Shown: one piece after another, positions 31,322-40,615 of the stretch
Position numbering within the stretch: the stretch's first letter is position 1
Layout: each line of letters starts with the position of its first letter
NCBI GenBank assembly: GCA_035542375.1
Contig: DATKLO010000101.1
Location: 1,209-65,208, forward strand
Origin: Steroidobacteraceae bacterium
Lineage (GTDB): Bacteria > Pseudomonadota > Gammaproteobacteria > Steroidobacterales > Steroidobacteraceae
Length of the DNA stretch: 64,000 nucleotides
Direction: 5' to 3'
Translations under genes and position numbers: made by a program
Notes under the pieces: model-generated
Databases searched by the model: none
Seen by the model: the letters and a program-made list of their open reading frames with translations, nothing else
What the model was told of the DNA's origin: nothing

Positions 31322-32513
31322 TGCGCACGGCCGCCAAGGCGCGATCGGCGAGTTCGGCGTCGAAGGGAATGTCCTTCTCGATGTCCCAACCGGTAAAGGT
31401 CACGATCAGCTGCTCGGCGGGAAACACCATCAGCCGCTGGCCGCCGAGCCCGATGGCGTGCCAGATGAAGTCCTGCGAATCGGCGCGTGGCTGGAGCCAC
31501 CATTTATATCCGTAGCGCAAGCCCTGCCAGCCCGTATCGATGGCCGGCCGCAGCGACTCCTGGATCCAGTCGTGTGATACCAACCGCTTGCCTTCCCACA
31601 CACCATCGTTGAGGTACAGGTAACCGATCTTCGCCAGATCCGCTCCGTTGAGGTAAAGGCCGCCTTCGGTATCGACGACGCCGAGGTAGGTCCGCTTCCA
31701 GTGGTGTTTGATGCCAAGGGGCGTGAACAGGTACGCCTCGGCGTACGCATCGATGTCCTGTCCGGTCTCCTTCCTGAAGATGTAAGCCAGCAGTTCCGTA
31801 GCGCCGCTGCTGTAGTTGAAGACCGTGCCCGGATCATGCGCCATGGGCTTGTCGATCACATACTGCACCCAGTCATCGGTTGCTTCCATCAGGCTCGAAT
31901 CGCTGCGCGGATCGTCGTAGGGCACGTCCTCCAGCCAATCGAGGCCGCTGGTCATGGTGAGCACGTCCCTCAGGGTCATCCGGCGCTTGCGCTCGTCGAC
32001 ATTCCTGACCCTCTTCGCATCGAAGTAGCTGAGCACGGGAGTGTCCACACTCGCCTTGAAATCGCCTCGGGTCCTGGCGATCCCGATGATCACGGAGGTC
32101 ACCGTCTTGCTGACGGACTGCATCGTGTGAAGATCCGTGCCGTGGTAGTACGGGTGCCAGGCGGGATCGTAGTAGTTGTAGGGACCGGTCAGGCGAGCAT
32201 TCAGGGGTCCCCGGGTCTTCGCCTGCTTGCCGTAGATCCTGCCGTAATCATGGTCGTAGGTTCGGCTGAACACCTGCGTGCCGCAGCGAAATACCTGGAC
32301 GCTGTCCACCAGGCTGTACTTGCCCTTCGCCAGATCCGAGTCGAGCTGCGCGAGCACCTGCTCGTCGAGGCCCACGCTGGCCGGAGTTCCCTGCCGCCAG
32401 CCGTGAGTCGGCCAGGGTGGCGACGTTTGCTGAGCGCCTGAAGCGGGACGACCGACTGACAGGACCGCGATCGACAGCAGCACGGTTGACAGGACCACGA
32501 CCAGCTGGCGCAT
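31293..32513 (-). CDS. Serine hydrolase of the beta-lactamase/transpeptidase-like family, secreted
   Basis: SVSKTVT (SxxK) motif. I prefer the start MRQLVVVLSTVLLSIAVLSV (signal peptide). Confidence 0.85.
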   Translation of the reverse strand: MRQLVVVLSTVLLSIAVLSVGRPASGAQQTSPPWPTHGWRQGTPASVGLDEQVLAQLDSDLAKGKYSLVDSVQVFRCGTQVFSRTYDHDYGRIYGKQAKTRGPLNARLTGPYNYYDPAWHPYYHGTDLHTMQSVSKTVTSVIIGIARTRGDFKASVDTPVLSYFDAKRVRNVDERKRRMTLRDVLTMTSGLDWLEDVPYDDPRSDSSLMEATDDWVQYVIDKPMAHDPGTVFNYSSGATELLAYIFRKETGQDIDAYAEAYLFTPLGIKHHWKRTYLGVVDTEGGLYLNGADLAKIGYLYLNDGVWEGKRLVSHDWIQESLRPAIDTGWQGLRYGYKWWLQPRADSQDFIWHAIGLGGQRLMVFPAEQLIVTFTGWDIEKDIPFDAELADRALAAVRSATCAKPAH

Positions 32514-32687
32514 GAGGGCACTCTCTCGGATCGTCGAAAAGCGGGGTGGTGCGGGTGGAATTCTAGCCACCCGTCCTGATCGCGACTACTTGCGGGCAGC
32601 TTCCACCAGGGCACGGATCGCCCACCGCCTGACCTTGCGGGCTTCCGCCTCATCGCGCCGCAGTACGTCCTTGAATACGACCAGGCG

Positions 32688-32774
32688 CCCCAGCCGCCGC
32701 CCGGCGAGCCCAGCGCTCCGGCGAGCCCAGCACCCCGGCGGCCCCAGCACCCCGGCGGCCCCAGCACCCCGGCG
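32688..32774. repeat. Tandem 17-nt repeat (consensus GCCCCAGCACCCCGGCG): four full units plus one degenerate unit, intergenic
   Basis: Units at 32707-32723, 32724-32740, 32741-32757 and 32758-32774, the last two identical. The period is not a multiple of 3. Confidence 0.75.
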
Positions 32775-32782
32775 GCCGCCAA

Positions 32783-32854
32783 TATGGGTAGCTCCCCCGA
32801 CCAAGTTGGGTAGCCGCTGCCGATTCCGCCGCGGCGGCCTTTCTCCAGCATGTA
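32783..32854 (+). promoter_or_regulatory. Conserved cis-element, copy A (promoter/operator and/or 5' leader) upstream of the DUF4242 operon
   Basis: Ungapped 72-nt alignment to 33659-33730 with four conserved blocks: TATGGGKAGC, CAAGYTGGGTAGC, GCCGATTC, TTTCTCCAGSATGWA. Confidence 0.5.
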
Positions 32855-32891
32855 GTCCACCGGACCCGCCGGTCCGAACTGGAGAAAACCG

Positions 32892-33164
32892 ATGCCACGC
32901 TACCTGATCGAACGAGAGTTTCCCGCCGGACTGGCGATTCCGGTGGACGACTCGGGCGTCGCCCTGTGCCGTAACGTCATCCAGAACAACGCCGAGGACG
33001 GGGTGACCTGGATTCATTCCTACGTGACGCCCGATCGCAGGCAGACCTTCTGCATCTACGACGGTCCGTCGCCGGAAGCGGTACGGCGGGCGGCCACCCG
33101 CAACAAGCTCCCCATCTCGAGCATCACCGAAGTGCGGGTGCTCAATCCTTACTTCTACAGCTGA
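32892..33164 (+). CDS. DUF4242 domain protein (SCO4226-like small ferredoxin-fold protein)
   Basis: MPRYLIEREFP...W..SYVT.D...FCIYDGPS.EAVR.AA..N.LP...I.EV is the typical DUF4242 pattern. Confidence 0.75.
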   Translation: MPRYLIEREFPAGLAIPVDDSGVALCRNVIQNNAEDGVTWIHSYVTPDRRQTFCIYDGPSPEAVRRAATRNKLPISSITEVRVLNPYFYS

Positions 33165-33181
33165 AACGCAGGAGATCTGAC

Positions 33182-33538
33182 ATGAAAACCCTGATCGCGC
33201 TGGCAGCACTGTTCGTCGCGGCACCCGCATTCGCCGACGACGCGGCCTCTCACTCTGCCCCGACGGCGGCCAAGCCGGCCGTCCACCGTTACCTGGTCGA
33301 ACGCACGTTCCCGCCGCAGGCCCTCAAAGGCCTGAACGCCGAAACCAAGAGCAAGGTGAACGCCAACAACAAGTCAGTCGGCGTGAAGTGGATCACCTCG
33401 TACGCGAACTCAGACGAGACCAAGACGTTCTGCGTCTACGAGGGTCCGAATGAAGCTGCCATCCGCAAGGCGGCTGAACTGAACAAGCTGCCGGTCGACA
33501 GCATCACCGAAATTCCCGTGACGCTGTCGCCGCGCTGA
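33182..33538 (+). CDS. DUF4242 domain protein with a signal peptide
   Basis: MKTLIALAALFVAAPAFA signal peptide, then HRYLVERTFP...WITSYAN.DETKTFCVYEGPNEAAIRKAAELNKLPVDSITEI. AGGAG RBS. Confidence 0.75.
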   Translation: MKTLIALAALFVAAPAFADDAASHSAPTAAKPAVHRYLVERTFPPQALKGLNAETKSKVNANNKSVGVKWITSYANSDETKTFCVYEGPNEAAIRKAAELNKLPVDSITEIPVTLSPR

Positions 33539-33658
33539 GACAGCCGGGCGCCGAGATGACAACTTCCGTGACCGTTCCTCGAAACCCCTCTTGCGCGGAA
33601 CGGTCACGGCGGGCTGCCGCTGCGTTGTTCATTCCCAACGCCCCGTTCGGCTCCTCGA

Positions 33659-33730
33659 TATGGGGAGCGCAGGTCCACAAGCTGGGTAGCTCGCGCCGAT
33701 TCGCACCAGAACCGGTTTCTCCAGGATGAA
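33659..33730 (+). promoter_or_regulatory. Conserved cis-element, copy B, upstream of the 42-aa ORF
   Basis: See copy A. Block order and spacing are identical at a constant offset of 876 nt. Confidence 0.5.
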
Positions 33731-33762
33731 CACTGACCGTGGGGTACCAACGGAGAGAGACG

Positions 33763-33891
33763 ATGAAAGGACTGATCACACTGACCGCAGCGCTGCTGCT
33801 GACCTTCATCCTGCTGGCGCCGTCCGCCGACGCGACGCCTCTGGCGCCGATGGCCGGTCCCAAGGCGCCCATGCACCTGGCCAGCGAATGA
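33763..33891 (+). CDS. 42-aa secreted peptide (hypothetical)
   Basis: Not in the track (under 60 aa). Self-translated: MKGLITLTAALLLTFILLAPSADATPLAPMAGPKAPMHLASE*. A GGAGAGAGA SD lies ahead of the ATG. The sequence is signal-peptide-like followed by an 18-aa Pro/Met/His-containing tail. It is preceded by cis-element copy B. Confidence 0.35.
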   Translation: MKGLITLTAALLLTFILLAPSADATPLAPMAGPKAPMHLASE

Positions 33892-33903
33892 AAACCGTTC
33901 CCG

Positions 33904-36498
33904 CTACGACTCGCTGGCGTCATCCTGACGGCGCGCCAGCTTCACGGCCGCCACTCGCGATGCGACTCCGAGCTTCGCCAGGATGGCCGATACGTGCCGG
34001 TCAACGGTCCGGGTGGAAAGAAACAGCCGTTTGGCAATCGCTCCATTGGTCAGACTCTCGGACATCAGCGCCAGAATCTGCGCTTCCCTGCGTGTCAGGC
34101 CCCGTGGATGACTCCTGGTGGAATCACGCTGTCCGCGCGGCACGTTGCGTATTCCGTCCTGACGCATTCGCCTCCTGAGCATCGCGATCGCGGGCCACGC
34201 TCCGAGTCGCTGCAACTGCTCGAGTGCCTCAAGCTGCTGAGGCTCTTCGCCGCAATCCGCAAGGACACGCGCGGTTTCATATGGGCAGCCGAGTTCCGAC
34301 CAGGCGTTGGCCGCAGCCTTCCAGTCACGCGAGAGTTCCAGGCGGTACGGCGCGGCAATGTCATCAGGCGTTGCCTCGAGTTCCCCCACGGCACGAAGCG
34401 CCGCGGTCAGCGCACCCTTCAGCCAGGGATCCCGCTGTCGGGCAGCCAGTTCATAGGCTGACCGGACGTACCCGGATACCTCTTCCCACTGATCCGTCAG
34501 CCGACCCAGATCGGCCAGGGCCACCGCCACCGGCCCGATCCTTTGCAGCTCCTGGGTGGTATCCGCCAGTGTCCGGGCTTCCTCCAGCACCGCGCGGGCA
34601 TCGGGATCGCCGCGCCGAACCCGCAGGTGCCCGATTACCGTGAGGGCCGGCAGGCGACTGACATTGATGGCACGTGGATGCCGCAGCACAGCTTCCGCAT
34701 CCTCGCTCGCCGCATCCCAGTCGCCGCGCTCGAAATTCAGGCGCGCCCGCCAGGCAAGCATGTAGAGCCGCCAAGAGTCCAGATCGTGCGCTTCACAATA
34801 GGCCAGCCCGGCTCCCAGGGCTTTCTGCGCCGCTTCATAGCGCCGCGCCGCGGTGGAACTGGAAGAGAGGTTCGTATACGCACGCGCCGCGTGTTCCTGC
34901 AGACCATGCTCCAGCGCCAGAGCCAGGCTCCGGTCGAGATCCGCCCAGCCGCCTTCATCGCCACCCATCGACCGCGATGTACCCCGGTTGTTGAGAGCGT
35001 GGCTCAGCGTATCGATATCCTCCAGTCGCTCCGCGAGTTCGATCGCGCGGTTGGCCCAGCTCACGGCCGCCACCGTGTCGTGAGCCAACATCCGCAGTTG
35101 CGATTGATTGCTGTAGGCCATTGCAAGTTCCCGGCCAGGTGCAAGCCCATCCAGTGTGGTGATCGCGGCGTTCGCGTAGCGATCCGCGTCCGCACCCCGT
35201 CCCGCGAACCAGCTCAGACGCGACATCCAGCGCAGCGTGTCGCCTTCCTCCCGTGTTCGACCCTGCGAGCGCCAGTGCGTGAGGGCCTCGAGACGCGCGG
35301 CGAGCGCCTGTTCGGTTTGACCGGTCAGGTAGTACTCGTACGACAGATGCTGTTGCAGCTGTGCCCGCTCGTCACCCGACAGGCGCGCTCCATACCTGAG
35401 GGCTGCCTCGAAATGTGCCGCAGCCTCCCGATGCGAACCCACCGATCCAGCCTGCGCAGCCGCAACAGGTGCCAGCCGCAACACGGCGTCCGCGTCCCTG
35501 GCCCCATCGGCATGGTGCACGAGTCGGGCCGCGGGTATATCAGACTGGGCCGCGAGCAACCTGAGCGCCTGGGCGTGCAGACTCTGCCGCAGCGTCGGGA
35601 GCAGGGATTCCTCCACGGCTCGGCGCACCAGCTCGTGGCGGAATCCCAGGGTGTCATCGTCGTGCAGCACCATGCCCACTTCGACACATCCCGCTATGGC
35701 TGCATCGTCTGCCTGCAACGCCTGACGGACCAGCGACAGTTCCGTCTTGCCGGGCACCACAGACACGAGCTCCGCGACCTGCCTGGCCGCGGGGGAAAGG
35801 CGCGCGGTCCGCGCGAGCACCGCGTCGCGAACCGTCGCCGGAACGGAGTCGATGCCCGACGCCAGCACTTCCGTGACGAACAGGGGATTGCCAGCGGTGA
35901 TGCGGTAGAGACCTTCCGGCGAACGCCCCGCGGCGCGGGCCAGTTCGGCAACCGCGGCCTCGGACAGCGGCGTGATCGAGACCCGCGCCATGTTCGCGCG
36001 CGGCAGATCGCCGATCACCCCGCGCAAGGGGTGCTTCGAGTTGACTTCATCGTCGCGGAAGGAGACCGCGATCATCGAGCGGGTGGTGTGAATGCGCCGT
36101 CCCAGGAACTTCAGCAGATCGAGTGTCGCCTCGTCCGCCCAGTGCATGTCCTCGAACACCACCAGTGTCGGTTCACGTTCCAGCTCATCGAGCGCCAGCG
36201 CAAAGAGGTCCTCGCGCCGGGCCCCGGAACCGAGTGCCGTCAGCAGCGCTCCGCCGGTCCGTCGGGCCACATCCCACAACGGCGCCAACGGGCGCGGCGC
36301 GAACAGATCGTCGCACCCTCCCCACAGCACCCGCACCGCGGTCTGCGCCGCGGCGAATTCGCGCAGCAACAGGGTCTTGCCCACGCCGGCTTCGCCACCA
36401 ACCAGCACCACGATGCCCGACTCGGTGCGCGCACCCTGCAGTCGTTGCGCGAGATCGGCAAGCAGACGCTCTCTTTCGAGCAACTTCACTCGGCTCAT
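33904..36498 (-). CDS. Large ATP-binding LuxR-family regulator (LAL/MalT-like STAND: AAA ATPase, TPR, LuxR HTH)
   Basis: GGEAGVGKT Walker [18 protein letters not shown] Walker B, TPR-like middle region, C-terminal LTRREAQILALM...[16 protein letters not shown] prefer the start MSRVKLLERERLL. Confidence 0.9.
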   Translation of the reverse strand: MSRVKLLERERLLADLAQRLQGARTESGIVVLVGGEAGVGKTLLLREFAAAQTAVRVLWGGCDDLFAPRPLAPLWDVARRTGGALLTALGSGARREDLFALALDELEREPTLVVFEDMHWADEATLDLLKFLGRRIHTTRSMIAVSFRDDEVNSKHPLRGVIGDLPRANMARVSITPLSEAAVAELARAAGRSPEGLYRITAGNPLFVTEVLASGIDSVPATVRDAVLARTARLSPAARQVAELVSVVPGKTELSLVRQALQADDAAIAGCVEVGMVLHDDDTLGFRHELVRRAVEESLLPTLRQSLHAQALRLLAAQSDIPAARLVHHADGARDADAVLRLAPVAAAQAGSVGSHREAAAHFEAALRYGARLSGDERAQLQQHLSYEYYLTGQTEQALAARLEALTHWRSQGRTREEGDTLRWMSRLSWFAGRGADADRYANAAITTLDGLAPGRELAMAYSNQSQLRMLAHDTVAAVSWANRAIELAERLEDIDTLSHALNNRGTSRSMGGDEGGWADLDRSLALALEHGLQEHAARAYTNLSSSSTAARRYEAAQKALGAGLAYCEAHDLDSWRLYMLAWRARLNFERGDWDAASEDAEAVLRHPRAINVSRLPALTVIGHLRVRRGDPDARAVLEEARTLADTTQELQRIGPVAVALADLGRLTDQWEEVSGYVRSAYELAARQRDPWLKGALTAALRAVGELEATPDDIAAPYRLELSRDWKAAANAWSELGCPYETARVLADCGEEPQQLEALEQLQRLGAWPAIAMLRRRMRQDGIRNVPRGQRDSTRSHPRGLTRREAQILALMSESLTNGAIAKRLFLSTRTVDRHVSAILAKLGVASRVAAVKLARRQDDASES

Positions 36499-36655
36499 GG
36501 GAAAAGGCGTCGACCGATGATCCTGACACGAACGGACCGGGCAACGCACGATGGTACTGCCGCTGGCGCACCGAAGTCACCTGCCGGAAGCGGCCGGACG
36601 GTTGCGCGTATCTATAACATGATATATAAATAGTTATGCAACTGAGATCGGGAAC

Positions 36656-37162
36656 GTGATGGACGTGGTCCGGGATCTGGGGCACTTGACCCTGGGGAGC
36701 CGCCTGAAGCGGCTGGGCGAGCGGCTACAGGCGCAGGCCCAGGACCTGATCGAGGAAGCCGGTGTCGAACTGCCCGCCTCGCACTATCCGCTGCTGGCCG
36801 CGCTCGACCGGCTCGGCCCGTCGGGTGTGGGAGAACTGGCCCAGGCCGTTGGCATCAGCCAGCCGGGAGTGACGCGGATGCTGGACAATCTGCAGTCGCG
36901 GGGCTGGGTGAGTTCGCAGCGCCAGAGCGCTGACCGGCGGGTACGGCCCATCGCGTTGACTCGGTCGGGTCGCCAGTTGATCAGCCGCTCGAAGCAGGCA
37001 ATCTGGCCCAGGATCGAAGCCGCGGTCGCCGACGCCTGCGCGGGCGGTTCAGGTTCATTGCTTGCGCAACTATCCGCGCTCGAGGACGCTCTCGCCGACG
37101 CGCCCTTGCAAGTCCGGGCGACGCGGCTTTCTGCACGAGGCCGTGGGCATGCCGCAGCTTGA
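36656..37162 (+). CDS. MarR family transcriptional regulator
   Basis: 168 aa winged-helix protein: LAALDRLGPSGVGELAQAVGISQPGVTRMLDNLQSRGWV...DRRVRPIALT. Confidence 0.85.
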   Translation: MMDVVRDLGHLTLGSRLKRLGERLQAQAQDLIEEAGVELPASHYPLLAALDRLGPSGVGELAQAVGISQPGVTRMLDNLQSRGWVSSQRQSADRRVRPIALTRSGRQLISRSKQAIWPRIEAAVADACAGGSGSLLAQLSALEDALADAPLQVRATRLSARGRGHAAA

Positions 37163-38023: not shown

Positions 38024-40615
38024 TCAGCGGCCACCCGATTCCGGGTCGCTGCTCGAACTGCCGATGACCGCGGCAGCCTCGGCGCGTGTCCTGACACCGA
38101 GCTTGGCCAGAATCGCCGAGACGTGGTGATCGACCGTCTTGGTGGACAGATAGAGCCGCTTGGCGATGGCGGAATTGCGCATGCCCCGCGCCACCAGGGC
38201 CAGAATCTCCGCCTCGCGCCGGGTGAGCCCGAAAGCATTGCGCCGAGTCGATTCCTTGACGCCGCGGGGTACGTTGCGGACACCCTGTGCGCGCATCTTC
38301 TTGCGCAGCAGACGCTCGGCAGGCGCTGCTCCCAATTCCTTGAAAAGGGTCAACGCCTCGCGCTGCTCGGCCTCACCGCCGTGACAACACAGCACACACG
38401 CATATTCATATGTGCATCCCAGGGACTTCCACACTGCGGCGGCGCCACGCCAGTCACCGGCGATCTCGAGGGCATAAGGGTCTGAAACATCGGACGGTGT
38501 TTCATCAAGCGCTCCGACCCGAATCAACCAGACCGCAAGTTCTCCCTTCATGCGAGGATCCCGGCGCGCGCGCACCAGTTCATACGCGGTGCGAGCCTCC
38601 CGGATGACACCTTCACGGTCCTCGGTCAACCAGGCGGCCTCGGCCCGAATTGCCGCGAGCGTGCCCACCCGCTGCAGCTCACGTGCGCTACCTGCAAGCT
38701 CCTCCGCCTCCCTGATGGGTGTGGCAGCGTCGGGATCACCGCGCCGCACGCGCATGTGCCCGACGATCCGGAGCGCCGGGATCCGGGTAACAGCTGTGGC
38801 TCGCGGGTGCCGAAGCACGATCTCCGCATCCGCACTGGCGCCGTCCCAATCGTCCCGCTCGAACTTCAGACGGGCGCTGTAGGCCATGAGGTACAGCCAC
38901 CACGAATCGAGATCATGGTCCTCGCAGTACCGCAGGCCATCCTGGAGAAAAGCCAGCGCGCGCGCGTACTCGCGCCGCGAGACCGCCATCGCACAGCAGT
39001 TGGTGTAGGCGCGAGCCAGTTCGATCTGCAGGCCCTGTTTCAAGGCAATCCCGAGGCAGCGCTCGAGATCCGCCCAGCCGGCTTCATCCGCAGCGATCAG
39101 CCGGGTCGTGCCGCGCGTGTTCAGTGCATCGGCGAGTATCTCAAGCTGTCGGTTGGGTTCCGCCCAGGCGATGGCACGCCCCGCCCATTCGATCGCGGAA
39201 TCGATCTCGTGCGCCTCCATGTCGAGCTGCGCCCGGTTGGCATACGCCATGGCGAGCTCCGCGCCGGGCGGATCGGAACCCAGAATCCCGACCGATTCCG
39301 CCGCGTACTGTTCCGCCTGGCGACGCCGCCCCACGAACCAATGAAGCCGCGACAGCCAGCGCAGGGTATCGGCTTGCTTGAGGCGATTGCCCGCAAGACG
39401 CCAGACCCGCAGGGCCGCCTCGCGCGCGACGATGGCGCGTTCATGCTGGCTGGTGAGGTAGCACTCGAAAGCGAGTAGTTCCTGAAGGCGGGTACGCTCC
39501 AGTGGGGAAACATCGTCCGAATAGCGCAACGCCATCTCGTAATGCGACACCGCCTCCCGGTGCGCACCCACCGTTGCGGCCTGATCGGCCGCGATGGCGG
39601 CGAGCCTGCGGACTGCGTCGCCATCGCGAGCACCGTCGGCGTGGTGGGCAAGCCTGGCTGCCGACACATCCGGGCGGCCAGTGAGCGCTTTAAGTGCCGC
39701 GGCATGCAGACTCTGCCGCTGTTGCGGAAACAGCGAGTCCTCGAGCGCTCGCCGCACGAGCTCATGCCGGAACCCGATCGAGCCATCCGCATGCAGCACC
39801 ATCCCCATGCTGACACAACCGGCGATCCCCGACTGGTCAACGCACAGCGCGCTCTCGAGCAACCAGGGTTCAGCCTTGCCCGGCACGACACAGACGAATT
39901 CCGCGATCGCACGGGCCGAGGGTGAGAGCCGCGCCGCGCGCGCGAGCACGGCATCACGCACGGTCGCCGGCACGGAATCAACACCCGAAGCGAGAACCTC
40001 CGTCACGAACAGAGGGTTGCCCCCGGTGATCTTGTAGAGATCACCGGCCGCATGCGCCGCCACGCCGGCGAGTTCCGCCACGGCCGATTCCGACAGGGGC
40101 ACGAGAGACACCCTTCGTGTGCTGGCGCTCGGCAAGTCACCGATGACCATCCGCAGAGGATGTTGCGTACCGAGCTCATCGTCCCGGAATGTCGCGGCAA
40201 TCATCGAACGCGTGGTGTGAATGCGCCGGCCGAGAAACTTCAGCAGGTCGAGTGTCGCTTCATCCGCCCAGTGCATGTCCTCGAGTACGAGCAGGATGGA
40301 TTCGCGCTCGAGTACGGTCAGAGCCAGTGAAAACACGTGTTCGCGCCGATCCTTGGAAGTCAGCGCCTCCAGTAGCTCGCCTCGTATCTGTCGGGCGATG
40401 TCCCAGACCGGTGCCAGCGGCCGGGGCGTCGACAGATCGTCACACCCGCCCCACAACACGCGGACGCCCGCCCGGGACGCGAACTCACGCAGCAGCGTTG
40501 TCTTGCCGACGCCAGCTTCGCCGCCGATGAGCATCACGCAGCCCGCTCGAGTGCGCGCGGCCTCGAGCCACATCGCGAGGTCGGTCAGCAACCGGTCTCT
40601 TTCCAGCAGTTTCAC
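38024..40615 (-). CDS. Large ATP-binding LuxR-family regulator (LAL/MalT-like), paralog of 33904..36498
   Basis: Same architecture as its paralog. The N-terminal about 150 aa are very similar ([39 protein letters not shown] identical run). LuxR HTH at the C-terminus. Confidence 0.9.

Follow-up and report, generated by a model that had tools for sequence, protein, structure and literature searches.

The LAL-type regulator MalT of E. coli is the archetype of its class and acts as an activator. The promoters controlled by MalT have a poor –35 hexamer and carry several half-sites, of which the proximal one covers the –35 region and those upstream are direct repeats. Soil bacteria encode many LAL/STAND regulators; to our knowledge, an operator or a regulon has been defined for few of them. 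Among the other relevant systems, NarL recognizes 7-2-7 pairs of heptamers, and the lux box of LuxR is centered at –42.5, where it overlaps the –35 region. The transposase genes of IS10 and IS50 are subject to fold-back inhibition of read-through transcripts. The operators of GerE (Bacillus subtilis) and PedR (Synechocystis) are described by RWWTRGGYNNYY; the GerE consensus is reported as RWWTRGGYN2YY (PMC2695774), and the PedR report gives the PedR consensus and describes both proteins as activating and repressing (PMC13421787).

The 64 kb stretch of DNA analyzed here (the window) contains two copies, A and B, of a 72-nt element with the same half-site sequence as the GerE and PedR operators. 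The half-site unit is consistent with both consensus sequences, and the adjoining regulator carries a GerE-type HTH for which PedR is the best named match. Whereas GerE and PedR are small and essentially HTH only, the HTH is here the C-terminus of a STAND ATPase of 860–900 aa, and the array of two direct repeats 22 bp apart plus an inverted repeat is not reported for GerE or PedR in the passages of the sources that were consulted. The architecture of the regulator (NTPase, helical sensor region, LuxR-type HTH) is shared with MalT, and the element resembles the MalT promoters in having two direct units and an inverted core near the –35 region. The preliminary description had drawn the parallel to MalT; the comparative data favor a LAL-type regulator, whereas the MalT box GGGGAKGAGG, or GGGGA(T/G)GAGG, is absent from 32780–32860 and 33656–33735 at up to two mismatches. 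Outside the HTH, the similarity of the LAL proteins to MalT is not significant, and whereas MalT targets genes of sugar catabolism, the element precedes small DUF4242, UrcA-like, and peptide genes. As in NarL and LuxR sites, inverted 7-nt cores lie 2 nt apart (3 nt in the window) and constitute a plausible site for a GerE-family dimer. The half-site is distinct from both TACYYMT and the lux box, and an extra in-phase direct repeat lies upstream. The element is an ordinary kind of gene switch, and current understanding is not overturned by it. The coordinates of the features are collected in Table 1.

Table 1. Features of the two elements, their target genes, and the adjoining regulators (coordinates are those of the window)
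Feature	Position	Strand	Remarks
Copy A unit 1 (CAATATGGGTAGC)	32780..32792	+	Distal half-site, direct orientation; PWM columns 0–12
Copy A unit 2 (CAAGTTGGGTAGC)	32802..32814	+	Begins 22 bp after unit 1
Copy A box 3 (CTGCCGATTC)	32817..32826	+	C before CGAT in 55/55 relatives
Copy A TTTCTCCAG	32840..32848	+	End of promoter spacer; overlaps first 3 nt of –10
Copy A putative –10 hexamer CAGCAT	32846..32851	+	Position 25 nt after C of CGAT
Copy A putative 5′ UTR	32858..32891	+	Start near 32858 (±2), deduced from –10 position
DUF4242/SCO4226-like gene, 90 aa	32892–33164	+	Pfam PF14026, E = 7.6e-22
DUF4242/SCO4226-like gene, 118 aa	33182–33538	+	Pfam PF14026, E = 2.4e-19
Target operon of copy A (both DUF4242 genes)	32892..33538	+	Downstream of copy A
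Copy B unit 1 (CGATATGGGGAGC)	33656..33668	+	PWM match 33.0
Copy B unit 2 (CAAGCTGGGTAGC)	33678..33690	+	Begins 22 bp after unit 1
Copy B box 3 (GCGCCGATTC)	33693..33702	+	CGAT at 33697–33700
Copy B TTTCTCCAG (33716–33724), overlapping putative –10 CAGGAT (33722–33727)	33716..33727	+	From alignment of relatives
Copy B target, 42-aa ORF MKGLITLTAALLLTFILLAPSADA-TPLAPMAGPKAPMHLASE	33763..33891	+	SD GGAGAGAGA at 33752–33760
LAL1, proposed cognate regulator	33904..36549	–	Pfam AAA_16 NTPase and C-terminal GerE HTH; convergent with targets
LAL2, paralogue	38024..40615	–	AAA_16 and GerE; 60% identical to LAL1

On realignment, positions 32783–32854 and 33659–33730 match without gaps at an offset of 876 nt with 45/72 identities concentrated in four blocks, which reproduces the count of the preliminary description. 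Its direct repeats 22 bp apart were recovered as exactly two perfect matches to TGGGKAGC-N14-TGGGTAGC in the window (copies A and B), with the spacing also kept in relatives, and its account of the context, with copy A before the DUF4242 pair and copy B before a 42-aa ORF, was borne out. The exact sequence TGGGTAGC occurs three times in the 64 kb, every time within copy A or copy B. A third double-box match at 36693 was rejected; it has three mismatches, is at chance level, and lies inside a probable MarR-type ORF (36656–37162). A 48-nt position weight matrix (PWM) was derived from the elements of relatives. The scores of copies A and B are 41.7 and 33.0 (the latter for a match that starts at 33656), compared with 11.0 for the best of 20 shuffled windows, and no third element was detected in the window with this matrix.

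The direct-repeat unit of blocks 1 and 2 is CAAnnTRGGYA at a spacing of 22 bp, and the column counts of the family give R-W-W-T-R-G-G-[Y/G]-N-N-Y-Y. The preliminary description had found no known motif in the element; the unit is a recognizable RWWTRGGYNNYY motif. The sequence ATATGGGTAGCT in unit 1 of copy A fits RWWTRGGYNNYY exactly, and the other three units of the window match by eye 8–9 of the 10 specified positions of the GerE/PedR consensus. Two exact matches to RWWTRGGYNNYY were found versus 6.0 expected by chance; a single exact match is not rare, and the weight therefore rests on the family profile. In the PWM columns for 55 relatives, A1, A2, T5, R6, G7, G8, and A10 of unit 1 are near-invariant, A23 of unit 2 is invariant, and A24 is present in 54/55. 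Unit matches appear at positions 0 and 22 in 52/55 and 53/55 relatives, respectively, which is partly by construction because the alignment is the one used to build the matrix. Since the repeats start exactly 22 bp apart, both lie on one face of the helix.

Block 3 (CCGAT) looks like a third half-site, inverted and placed over the –35 region. The reverse complement of 32817–32823 is TCGGCAG, the core of an inverted unit, and this core ends 18–19 nt before the –10 hexamer. Together with unit 2, the core of box 3 forms an imperfect palindrome, 7-2-7 in the family and 7-3-7 in the window. The positions of unit 2 and box 3 are complementary as T-A in 37/42, G-C in 39/42, and G-C in 41/42 sequences. 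In this register 79.8% of the cells are complementary, versus 19–61% when the partner is slid by 1–3 columns; the inner positions are complementary in only about half of the sequences. The –35-region half-site is a partial inverted copy only, with the mirrored part confined to the 7-nt core T-N-G-G-N-A-G. Box 3 as a full inverted unit was rejected, since the 13-nt unit matrix recognizes it in 3/55 sequences. Alternatively, sigma or some other factor could contact the CCGAT box.

Counting 25 nt from the C of CGAT leads to a hexamer whose second position is A and whose sixth is T in 45/55 relatives; in most of the others it is shifted by 1 nt. In distant relatives the hexamer reads TAnnnT. This –10 hexamer, which falls within block 4, emerged only from the alignment of relatives; a scan of 32400–34000 with the consensus sigma-70 promoter found no promoter, and inspection of the alignment revealed no canonical –35, that is, no TTGACA-like hexamer at a spacer of 16–18 nt. 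Promoters of the sigma-54 and ECF types, and boxes 1 and 2 as a –35/–10 pair, were rejected by inspection because the spacings do not fit. The transcript of copy B would start near 33734. If the start lies 7 nt past the hexamer, the palindrome would be centered about 43 bp upstream of it, close to the place of the lux box, and would take the position of a class II-type activator site, which overlaps the –35 region and is centered near –41.5 or –42.5. The preliminary description had read the blocks as tandem activator sites for the adjoining LAL/MalT-type regulators. The comparative evidence supports this reading and refines it, in that the 72 nt appear to be the entire promoter, beyond activator sites alone. 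A hairpin is predicted at 32861–32876 (CGGACC-CGCC-GGTCCG) in the putative 5′ UTR of copy A. On inspection, hairpins of differing sequence are seen at the same place of the 5′ UTR in relatives.

Of about 75 usable relatives, 55 have the architecture of the element before a DUF4242 gene, at 93–140 nt from the start codon. These 55 relatives, with protein identity as low as 62%, share the blocks, the spacings, and the distance to the start codon, and the repeats with their 22-bp spacing are kept before DUF4242 homologues in dozens of unrelated contexts. A 78-nt matrix is passed by 55/84 distinct upstream regions. Scores above 26 for the 48-nt core were obtained at 56 distinct loci, in most cases –93 to –140 relative to a DUF4242 start, and the remaining core matches lie before small proteins of other kinds, which by eye look secreted. 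A cultured case is provided by a plasmid of Deinococcus taeanensis TS293 (NZ_CP083459.1), in which the element and a DUF4242 gene come after a LAL gene (40% identical). A search for the block pattern had been proposed in the preliminary description. The strict form, TGGGNAGC-N14-TGGGNAGC-N4-8-CCGATTC, is too clade-specific and gave one match in 185,579 species genomes. That match, in a Gemmatimonadaceae MAG (L004), was rejected; it is without block 4 and is consistent with chance. It is the looser architecture that recurs in dozens of relatives.

Both large regulators named in the preliminary description were found by Pfam to contain AAA_16 (E about 1e-18) and GerE (PF00196), with weak matches to NACHT, nSTAND, and TPR. 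The NCBIfam MalT model covers residues 817–873 only, at 41.7 bits versus a cutoff of 537. The true start of LAL1 is probably internal, near 36498–36489, because the alignment to LAL2 begins at residue 21. The recognition helix is near-identical between LAL1 and LAL2 (13 residues versus STRTVDRHVSAIL), and LAL2 could bind the same sites as LAL1. A LAL orthologue adjoins the element in 45/56 element-bearing loci, in three arrangements and unrelated neighborhoods, and LAL is absent from 18/27 loci without the element; it is the only regulator that consistently adjoins the element. Regulators of the SARP type, with heptamer repeats phased at 11 or 22 bp, were rejected, since the regulator domain is GerE and there is no match to SARP or Trans_reg_C. 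By our count, the helix S-T-[KR] pairs with GGTA or GGCA units and the helix S-[P/E/A]-K mostly with GGGA units, and in the clade with TAAGGT units the helix KTASVHVTNLL replaces the majority helix, with S/V/T in place of D/H/S at the three base-contacting positions; this covariation involves a few clades only, and the counts ignore kinship. The pairing of this regulator with these targets was not found in the literature searched.

With a probability of roughly 0.75, each copy of the element forms a full promoter of the sigma-70 type and requires the adjoining LAL-type transcription factor as its activator. The repeated TGGGTAGC boxes would most likely be docking sites for the large LuxR-type regulator next door. 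The STAND-type LAL, and possibly also its paralogue 4 kb away, would oligomerize upon binding a signal and ATP. A dimer of the C-terminal HTH domains would sit on the palindrome, and further LAL protomers would fill the upstream repeat or repeats. The bound LAL would recruit RNA polymerase to an otherwise weak promoter and thereby turn on the DUF4242 pair from copy A and, from copy B, the small peptide that looks secreted.

A second layer of control is predicted in the RNA. The TTTCTCCAG of copy A could base-pair with the ribosome-binding region CTGGAGAAA at 32879–32887, which is the SD region of this copy, and a 9-bp helix between the two is present in the minimum-free-energy fold. In the fold of copy B, UUUCUCC pairs with GGAGAGA. 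The predicted SD accessibility for an element identical to copy A (L017) is 0.20 in the read-through RNA versus 0.90 in the RNA from the putative start; the values for copy B are 0.19 and 0.49, respectively. For the SD against the segment around the –10, the energies are –12.2 kcal/mol for native and –10.5 kcal/mol for non-native combinations (permutation p about 1e-4), and three control segments gave p above 0.29. The effect is heterogeneous, with a clear drop in SD accessibility in only about 20/54 sequences. These models suggest that pairing of TTTCTCC with the ribosome-binding site is limited to transcripts begun further upstream. Such read-through RNA would be poorly translated, and RNA begun at the promoter of the element would keep its ribosome-binding site free. 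No same-strand gene from which to read through lies upstream of copy A in the window. As in IS10 and IS50, the 5′ arm of the helix is upstream of the putative start, and the helix could form only in transcripts initiated outside the element; unlike in those transposase genes, the context is a regulated chromosomal promoter, and the fold-back is a prediction that varies between clades.

The same sites and the same protein would also be expected if the LAL were a repressor or a dual regulator that blocks RNA polymerase until a signal arrives. The overlap of the palindrome with the –35 region is compatible with repression, and the sign of regulation is uncertain because activation and repression are both reported (PMC13421787) for GerE and PedR, whose sites follow the same unit consensus. 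Repression is nevertheless unlikely. The lack of a recognizable –35 and the noncanonical –10 of the window (CAGCAT) are typical of promoters that need an activator, and the in-phase array of upstream half-sites, which extends to a third repeat another 22 bp upstream in L018, L019, and L021, resembles the activator arrays of MalT. Binding of the repeats by another factor, such as a NarL-type response regulator of the GerE family, or use of an alternative sigma factor would make the adjacency of the LAL coincidental or indirect. This is improbable, although the RWWTRGGY-type unit is common to many GerE-family proteins and the element of L020 lacks a LAL over 4 kb to each side (that of L060 over 4 kb upstream and 2.8 kb downstream). 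LAL alone among the regulators travels with the element across its arrangements and neighborhoods, and a different unit goes with a different recognition helix in this protein. A sigma factor would not be expected to recognize identical –35 and –10 boxes, and a conventional –10 lies further downstream.

It is highly improbable that an upstream promoter transcribes the conserved blocks into a cis-regulatory RNA in which the repeats act. The pairing of TTTCTCCAG with the SD in both copies, which first prompted the consideration of a riboswitch or leader for blocks 1–3, and the significant SD-specific complementarity around the –10 across the family would fit such an RNA. A riboswitch or leader was rejected, since RNAalifold assigned 0 consensus pairs to blocks 1–3 over 42 diverse sequences. 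No Rfam match was obtained for the whole window at the gathering score or for 32600–33950 at E up to 1. The blocks are conserved by sequence and by the fixed 22-bp spacing, without compensatory changes, and the A2/T6 –10 hexamer lies downstream of them. TTTCTCC is not conserved beyond the clade of the window, and shuffling does not worsen the predicted fold of copy B (z = +0.46). Chance similarity, or a decaying local duplication without function, has a close to negligible probability. Three other ungapped 72-nt pairs do match or exceed 45/72 over all offsets of 100–2999 in the whole window (48, 48, and 46, the only pairs that outscore the element), one of which is formed by the two DUF4242 paralogues. 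Neither chance nor decay would be expected to reproduce the blocks, the spacings, and the start-codon distance in 55 relatives and in Deinococcus, or to give PWM scores so far above the shuffled maximum.

For the LAL-dependent promoter, an operator model (unit, spacing, palindrome, and –10) is now available together with a proposed cognate regulator and a small set of targets, and the module on the Deinococcus taeanensis plasmid makes experiments possible. Tentatively, the element may define an undescribed regulon that spans phyla, in which a fixed cassette driven by a STAND/LAL regulator precedes small genes, with anti-Shine–Dalgarno insulation in several lineages. Its members would be DUF4242 proteins, of which some carry a secretion-type leader, together with UrcA-like proteins that look secreted and a peptide rich in Met and His. 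In the lineages with an anti-Shine–Dalgarno arm, only regulator-initiated transcripts would be translated, which would amount to built-in insulation against read-through. If real, an arm embedded in a promoter would be an instance of such insulation outside of the transposase genes from which we know the principle. The apparent joint change of helix and half-site provides material for a specificity code of GerE domains.

We know of no role for the DUF4242 proteins or for the small peptide, and the regulon may help to assign one. The control of SCO4226 was rejected as a guide, since the Streptomyces gene is controlled by PhoRP and not by a LAL; the DUF4242 proteins of the window are only distant relatives of SCO4226, at 25 and 19 bits versus a cutoff of 125. 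SCO4226 has a Ni-binding fold; with the UrcA-like co-targets and the Met/His-rich peptide, this makes metals candidate inducers. The 42-aa ORF has no Pfam or NCBIfam family match. A gene of 42 or 43 aa is called at the place of this ORF in L001, L002, L003, L005, and L009, the first three of which are 99.5–100% identical to the window and therefore uninformative on conservation. The 118-aa DUF4242 protein has a leader that resembles a signal peptide, and the 42-aa product, which is Met/His-rich, looks by eye like a signal peptide.

The two copies of the 72-nt element, A and B, are interpreted as LAL-dependent promoters that would be bound by the large LuxR-type regulators (LAL1 and LAL2) encoded nearby. 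Self-alignment of the window reproduced the preliminary description of both copies: they align without gaps with 45/72 identities that fall in four blocks. Just three other ungapped 72-nt pairs score above 45/72 at offsets of 100-2999 in the window, one of them being the DUF4242 paralogue pair. The exact sequence TGGGTAGC occurs three times in 64 kb, every time inside copy A or B, and the double-box pattern has two perfect matches in the window. The matrix scores of copies A and B are 41.7 and 33.0, respectively, against a maximum of 11.0 in shuffles, and no third copy was found in the window by matrix scoring. A third double-box match, with 3 mismatches, lies inside a coding region at chance level and was rejected. 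The self-similarities 331/2452 (offset 2121; 48/72 ungapped) and 19234/20807 (offset 1573; 46/72 ungapped) score higher or as high and may be paralogous coding segments.

The gene context agrees with the earlier placement of copy A ahead of the DUF4242 pair and copy B ahead of a 42-aa ORF, both near two LAL genes. LAL1 and LAL2 share 60% identity, their recognition helices are nearly the same, and both C-termini contain a GerE-type HTH; the best named NCBIfam match for the HTH of LAL1 is PedR. The alignment of the two proteins opens at LAL1 residue 21 (VKLLER versus MKLLER), and therefore the longest LAL1 ORF, starting at 36549, probably overshoots the true start. The orthologue in the related contig L005 is assigned 864 aa by gene callers.

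Coordinates of the features in the window and in related loci (window positions unless a locus is named)
Feature	Position	Strand	Remarks
Copy A	32783-32854		
Copy B	33659-33730		
DUF4242/SCO4226-like gene	32892-33164		90 aa; 112 nt downstream of copy A
DUF4242 paralogue	33182-33538		118 aa; signal-peptide-looking leader; after the 90-aa gene
Small ORF	33763-33891		42 aa; 107 nt downstream of copy B
Small ORF in relatives	L005 4932-5063; L009 2349-2480		42-43 aa
LAL1	33904-36549	minus	AAA_16 + GerE; convergent with the DUF4242 genes and 42-aa ORF
LAL1 start region	36489-36549		
Probable MarR-type gene, then GNAT gene			beyond LAL1, before LAL2
LAL2	38024-40615	minus	second LAL
Hairpin	33568-33607		11-bp stem (GTGACCGTTCC...GGAACGGTCAC); between second DUF4242 gene and copy B
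Terminator-like stem	33607-33622		followed by T-rich tail
17-nt tandem repeat (CCCGGCGGCCCCAGCAC)	32700-32777		4.6 copies, 91% matches; ends 2 nt short of copy A unit 1
15-nt tandem repeat (CGATTGACAGGACCA)	32453-32500		3.2 copies, 69% matches
~24-nt tandem repeat	L005 4740-4825		three copies, GTTCGTTCCC[A/G]CGTGACCCAACA-like
Cassette before UrcA-family genes	L019:458; L036:674; L076:349; L087:621		
Further cassettes in relatives	L043:449; L095:564(-); L078:63(-)		
Plasmid element	L097 4387-4500		NZ_CP083459.1

Contigs with an identical DUF4242 protein show 99.5-100% DNA identity and are uninformative on conservation; homologues at 76-96% identity were used. A module consisting of a DUF4242 gene (90 aa), a second one (118-121 aa) and a convergent LAL gene (858-900 aa) was found in five unrelated neighbourhoods. 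Upstream of all five, a pair of CAAnnTGGGYA boxes at 22-bp spacing is followed by a C[CG]GAT box and a block containing CATG, the layout being 111-117 nt away from the ATG. Another 80 loci (62-100% identity) came from scanning metagenome contigs with the protein as guide. A search for the blocks in relatives had been suggested earlier, and an iterated position weight matrix detected the element in 55 of the 84 different upstream regions, of which ~75 extend far enough to judge; it starts 93-140 nt ahead of the start codon. Scores above 26 for the 48-nt core occur almost exclusively at these DUF4242 upstream sites among ~890,000 positions scanned. The remaining matches precede other small genes, and one, in locus L072, is placed ahead of the first gene of a DUF4242 pair. 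Since the other genes include four of the UrcA family (TIGR04433, E about 1e-18) and, in locus L043, one for a 180-aa protein that has no family match and by eye looks secreted, the proposed regulon exceeds the DUF4242 genes. In a cultured organism, Deinococcus taeanensis, a plasmid carries a LAL gene, then CATGGGGAA-N13-CATAGGGAATTTTCCCGATG, then a DUF4242 gene; this LAL, annotated as 'AAA family ATPase', is 40% identical to LAL1 over its full length.

The column statistics of 55 sequences agree with the direct repeats 22 bp apart in the preliminary description. Positions A1, A2, T5, R6, G7, G8 and A10 of unit 1 (CAAnnTRGGYA) are near-invariant and are repeated 22 columns on in unit 2. In the alignment, which was pre-registered at 22 bp and used to build the matrix, 52 sequences have a unit match at position 0, 53 have one at position 22, and three have an extra unit at -22. 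By inspection, a few loci missed by the matrix (L035, L075 and L079) have a 21-bp spacing. With the alignment anchored on CGAT, the preceding base is C in 55/55 sequences. Reversed, this box (box 3) reads T-C-G-G-N-A/G-G, which mirrors T-R-G-G-N-A-G, the core of the unit, so that box 3 makes up an imperfect palindrome together with unit 2. The two halves are separated by 2 nt, and by 3 nt in the clade of the window. In register, complementarity extends to 79.8% of cells versus 19-61% with the partner slid, and is contributed mostly by the outer T..GG / CC..A positions (37-41 of 42).

A hexamer located 25 nt downstream of the C of CGAT carries the sequence signature of a -10 element: its second base is A and its sixth is T in 45/55 sequences, and most others are off by one base. 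In the window it reads CAGCAT or CAGGAT; distant relatives have TAGCCT, TACCGT, TAGGTT or TATCGT. At a spacer of 16-18 nt, no hexamer resembles TTGACA. If the start is taken ~7 nt past the hexamer, the palindrome would be centred near -43 and the unit cores near -47.5 and -69.5, with a 5' UTR of ~30-35 nt in the window. From this anatomy, blocks 1 and 2 are units 1 and 2, block 3 is an inverted half-site over the -35 region, and block 4 is the spacer end plus the -10 hexamer.

The preliminary description recognized no known motif and likened the sites to MalT boxes. The MalT box is absent from the element, and the unit is consistent with the GerE consensus RWWTRGGYN2YY (PMC2695774) and the PedR consensus 5'-RWWTRGGYNNYY-3' (PMC13421787). 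Unit 1 of copy A is an exact consensus match, with 2 exact matches found versus 6.0 expected; the argument rests on the family profile because one such match could well arise by chance. A LAL homologue was found in the DNA around 45/56 element-bearing loci (convergent downstream, 19; divergent upstream, 12; same strand upstream, 12; same strand downstream, 2), and in 9 of the 11 others the contig runs out within ~1.2 kb of the gene, on one side or both. Among element-less loci, 18/27 are without a LAL, and those with one mostly carry a variant cassette. In loci L040, L045, L050 and L054, TAAGGT/TAGGGT-like units with the same 22-bp spacing lie ~120 nt upstream of the DUF4242 start, with an inverted TTGAGGT in L040 and L054; L041 and L047 have the same units and no LAL match. 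The variant cassette has a TTGAGGT-like inverted core and a TAGCGT -10 hexamer. The LAL recognition helix of the first four, KTASVHVTNLL, differs from the majority helix at residues that would map onto the base-contacting positions K188, V189 and K192 of NarL. A natural re-specification of regulator and operator is possible. In the other sequences, S-T-[KR] helices occur with GGTA or GGCA units and S-[P/E/A]-K helices mostly with GGGA units. Both correlations come from few clades and take no account of phylogeny.

In the proposed mechanism, a STAND regulator would oligomerise upon sensing its signal, bind both the palindrome at the -35 region and the in-phase repeat(s) upstream, and recruit RNA polymerase to a promoter that lacks a -35 hexamer. 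The comparisons show the conservation, the spacing, the -10 hexamer, the neighbouring regulator gene and the fit to the consensus, and from these we infer which protein binds, the sign of regulation, the start site and the insulation against read-through. The element would work similarly to MalT-, LuxR- and NarL-controlled promoters, as an ordinary activator-dependent promoter with GerE-family sites, and differs from the MalT-box type. Speculatively, a link to metal or envelope stress could be read from the targets, which are DUF4242 proteins, UrcA-like proteins and a Met/His-rich peptide. The DUF4242 targets are distantly related to SCO4226, which binds Ni (PMC4186839); the Streptomyces protein is under PhoRP control (PMC4991794), and its function is therefore not transferable. 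None of the nine papers found to mention DUF4242 or SCO4226 deals with this regulator or motif, and a literature search on LAL footprints yielded only Streptomyces pathway regulators and unrelated LuxR proteins. The element would give a widespread and as yet uncharacterised LAL subfamily a defined operator model.

A riboswitch was rejected because Rfam gave no match, RNAalifold predicted no pair in blocks 1-3 (42 diverse sequences), and TTTCTCC is limited to the window's clade. In the predicted fold, TTTCTCCAG pairs with the ribosome-binding site (SD) region in both copies. Family-wide, the last 23 nt up to the start codon show specific complementarity to a 24-nt segment that takes in the end of the spacer, the -10 hexamer and the following 6 nt (mean of native duplexes, -12.2 kcal/mol, versus non-native, -10.5 kcal/mol; permutation p about 1e-4). 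No such specificity was found for the inferred 5' UTR, box 3 or unit 1 segments (p = 0.61, 0.35 and 0.29). The partners vary by clade (TTTCTCCAG/CTGGAGAAA in the window, CGATCTCCCT/AGGGAGATCG in L043 and CCTTTCTTTGA/TCAAAGAAAGG in locus L089). Because the 5' arm is located at the inferred start or upstream of it, solely transcripts begun further upstream would be able to form the helix. Predicted SD accessibilities for inferred-start RNA, read-through RNA and RNA with the upstream part shuffled are 0.90, 0.20 and 0.59 for copy A, 0.49, 0.19 and 0.47 for copy B, and 0.52, 0.39 and 0.45 for the family mean (Wilcoxon p = 2.7e-4 for inferred-start versus read-through; p = 0.03 for read-through versus shuffled). 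A clear drop is seen in just ~20/54 sequences, and we regard the fold-back as a secondary, lineage-variable feature. Fold-back inhibition is known from IS10 and IS50, which the present case resembles; an anti-SD arm may be built into the promoter.

The hairpin and stem at 33568-33632 probably terminate the operon and would thereby restrict read-through into copy B; L005 and the related locus L009 also have the long hairpin. In the D. taeanensis plasmid (L097), unit 1 lies within the 3' end of the LAL coding sequence and the LAL stop codon TAG inside unit 2 (CATAGGGAA), so that the target promoter abuts the regulator gene and is open to read-through from it. In the 42-43 aa ORF, a hydrophobic leader precedes a short mature part (TPLAPMAGPKAPMHLA...) in which Met and His are conserved, and the ORF has no family match. 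Since L009 keeps this ORF and lacks the element upstream of it, the second copy of the promoter is either dispensable or a recent gain. The 17-nt tandem repeat is shared by the near-identical contigs L001, L002 and L017 and absent in L005 (DUF4242 protein 96% identical), whose upstream sequence diverges from 32779 leftwards; it may be a strain-specific expansion. The ~24-nt repeat of L005, between the terminator hairpin and copy B, is absent from the window, and the 15-nt repeat lies in the 5' end of an opposite-strand beta-lactamase-fold gene.
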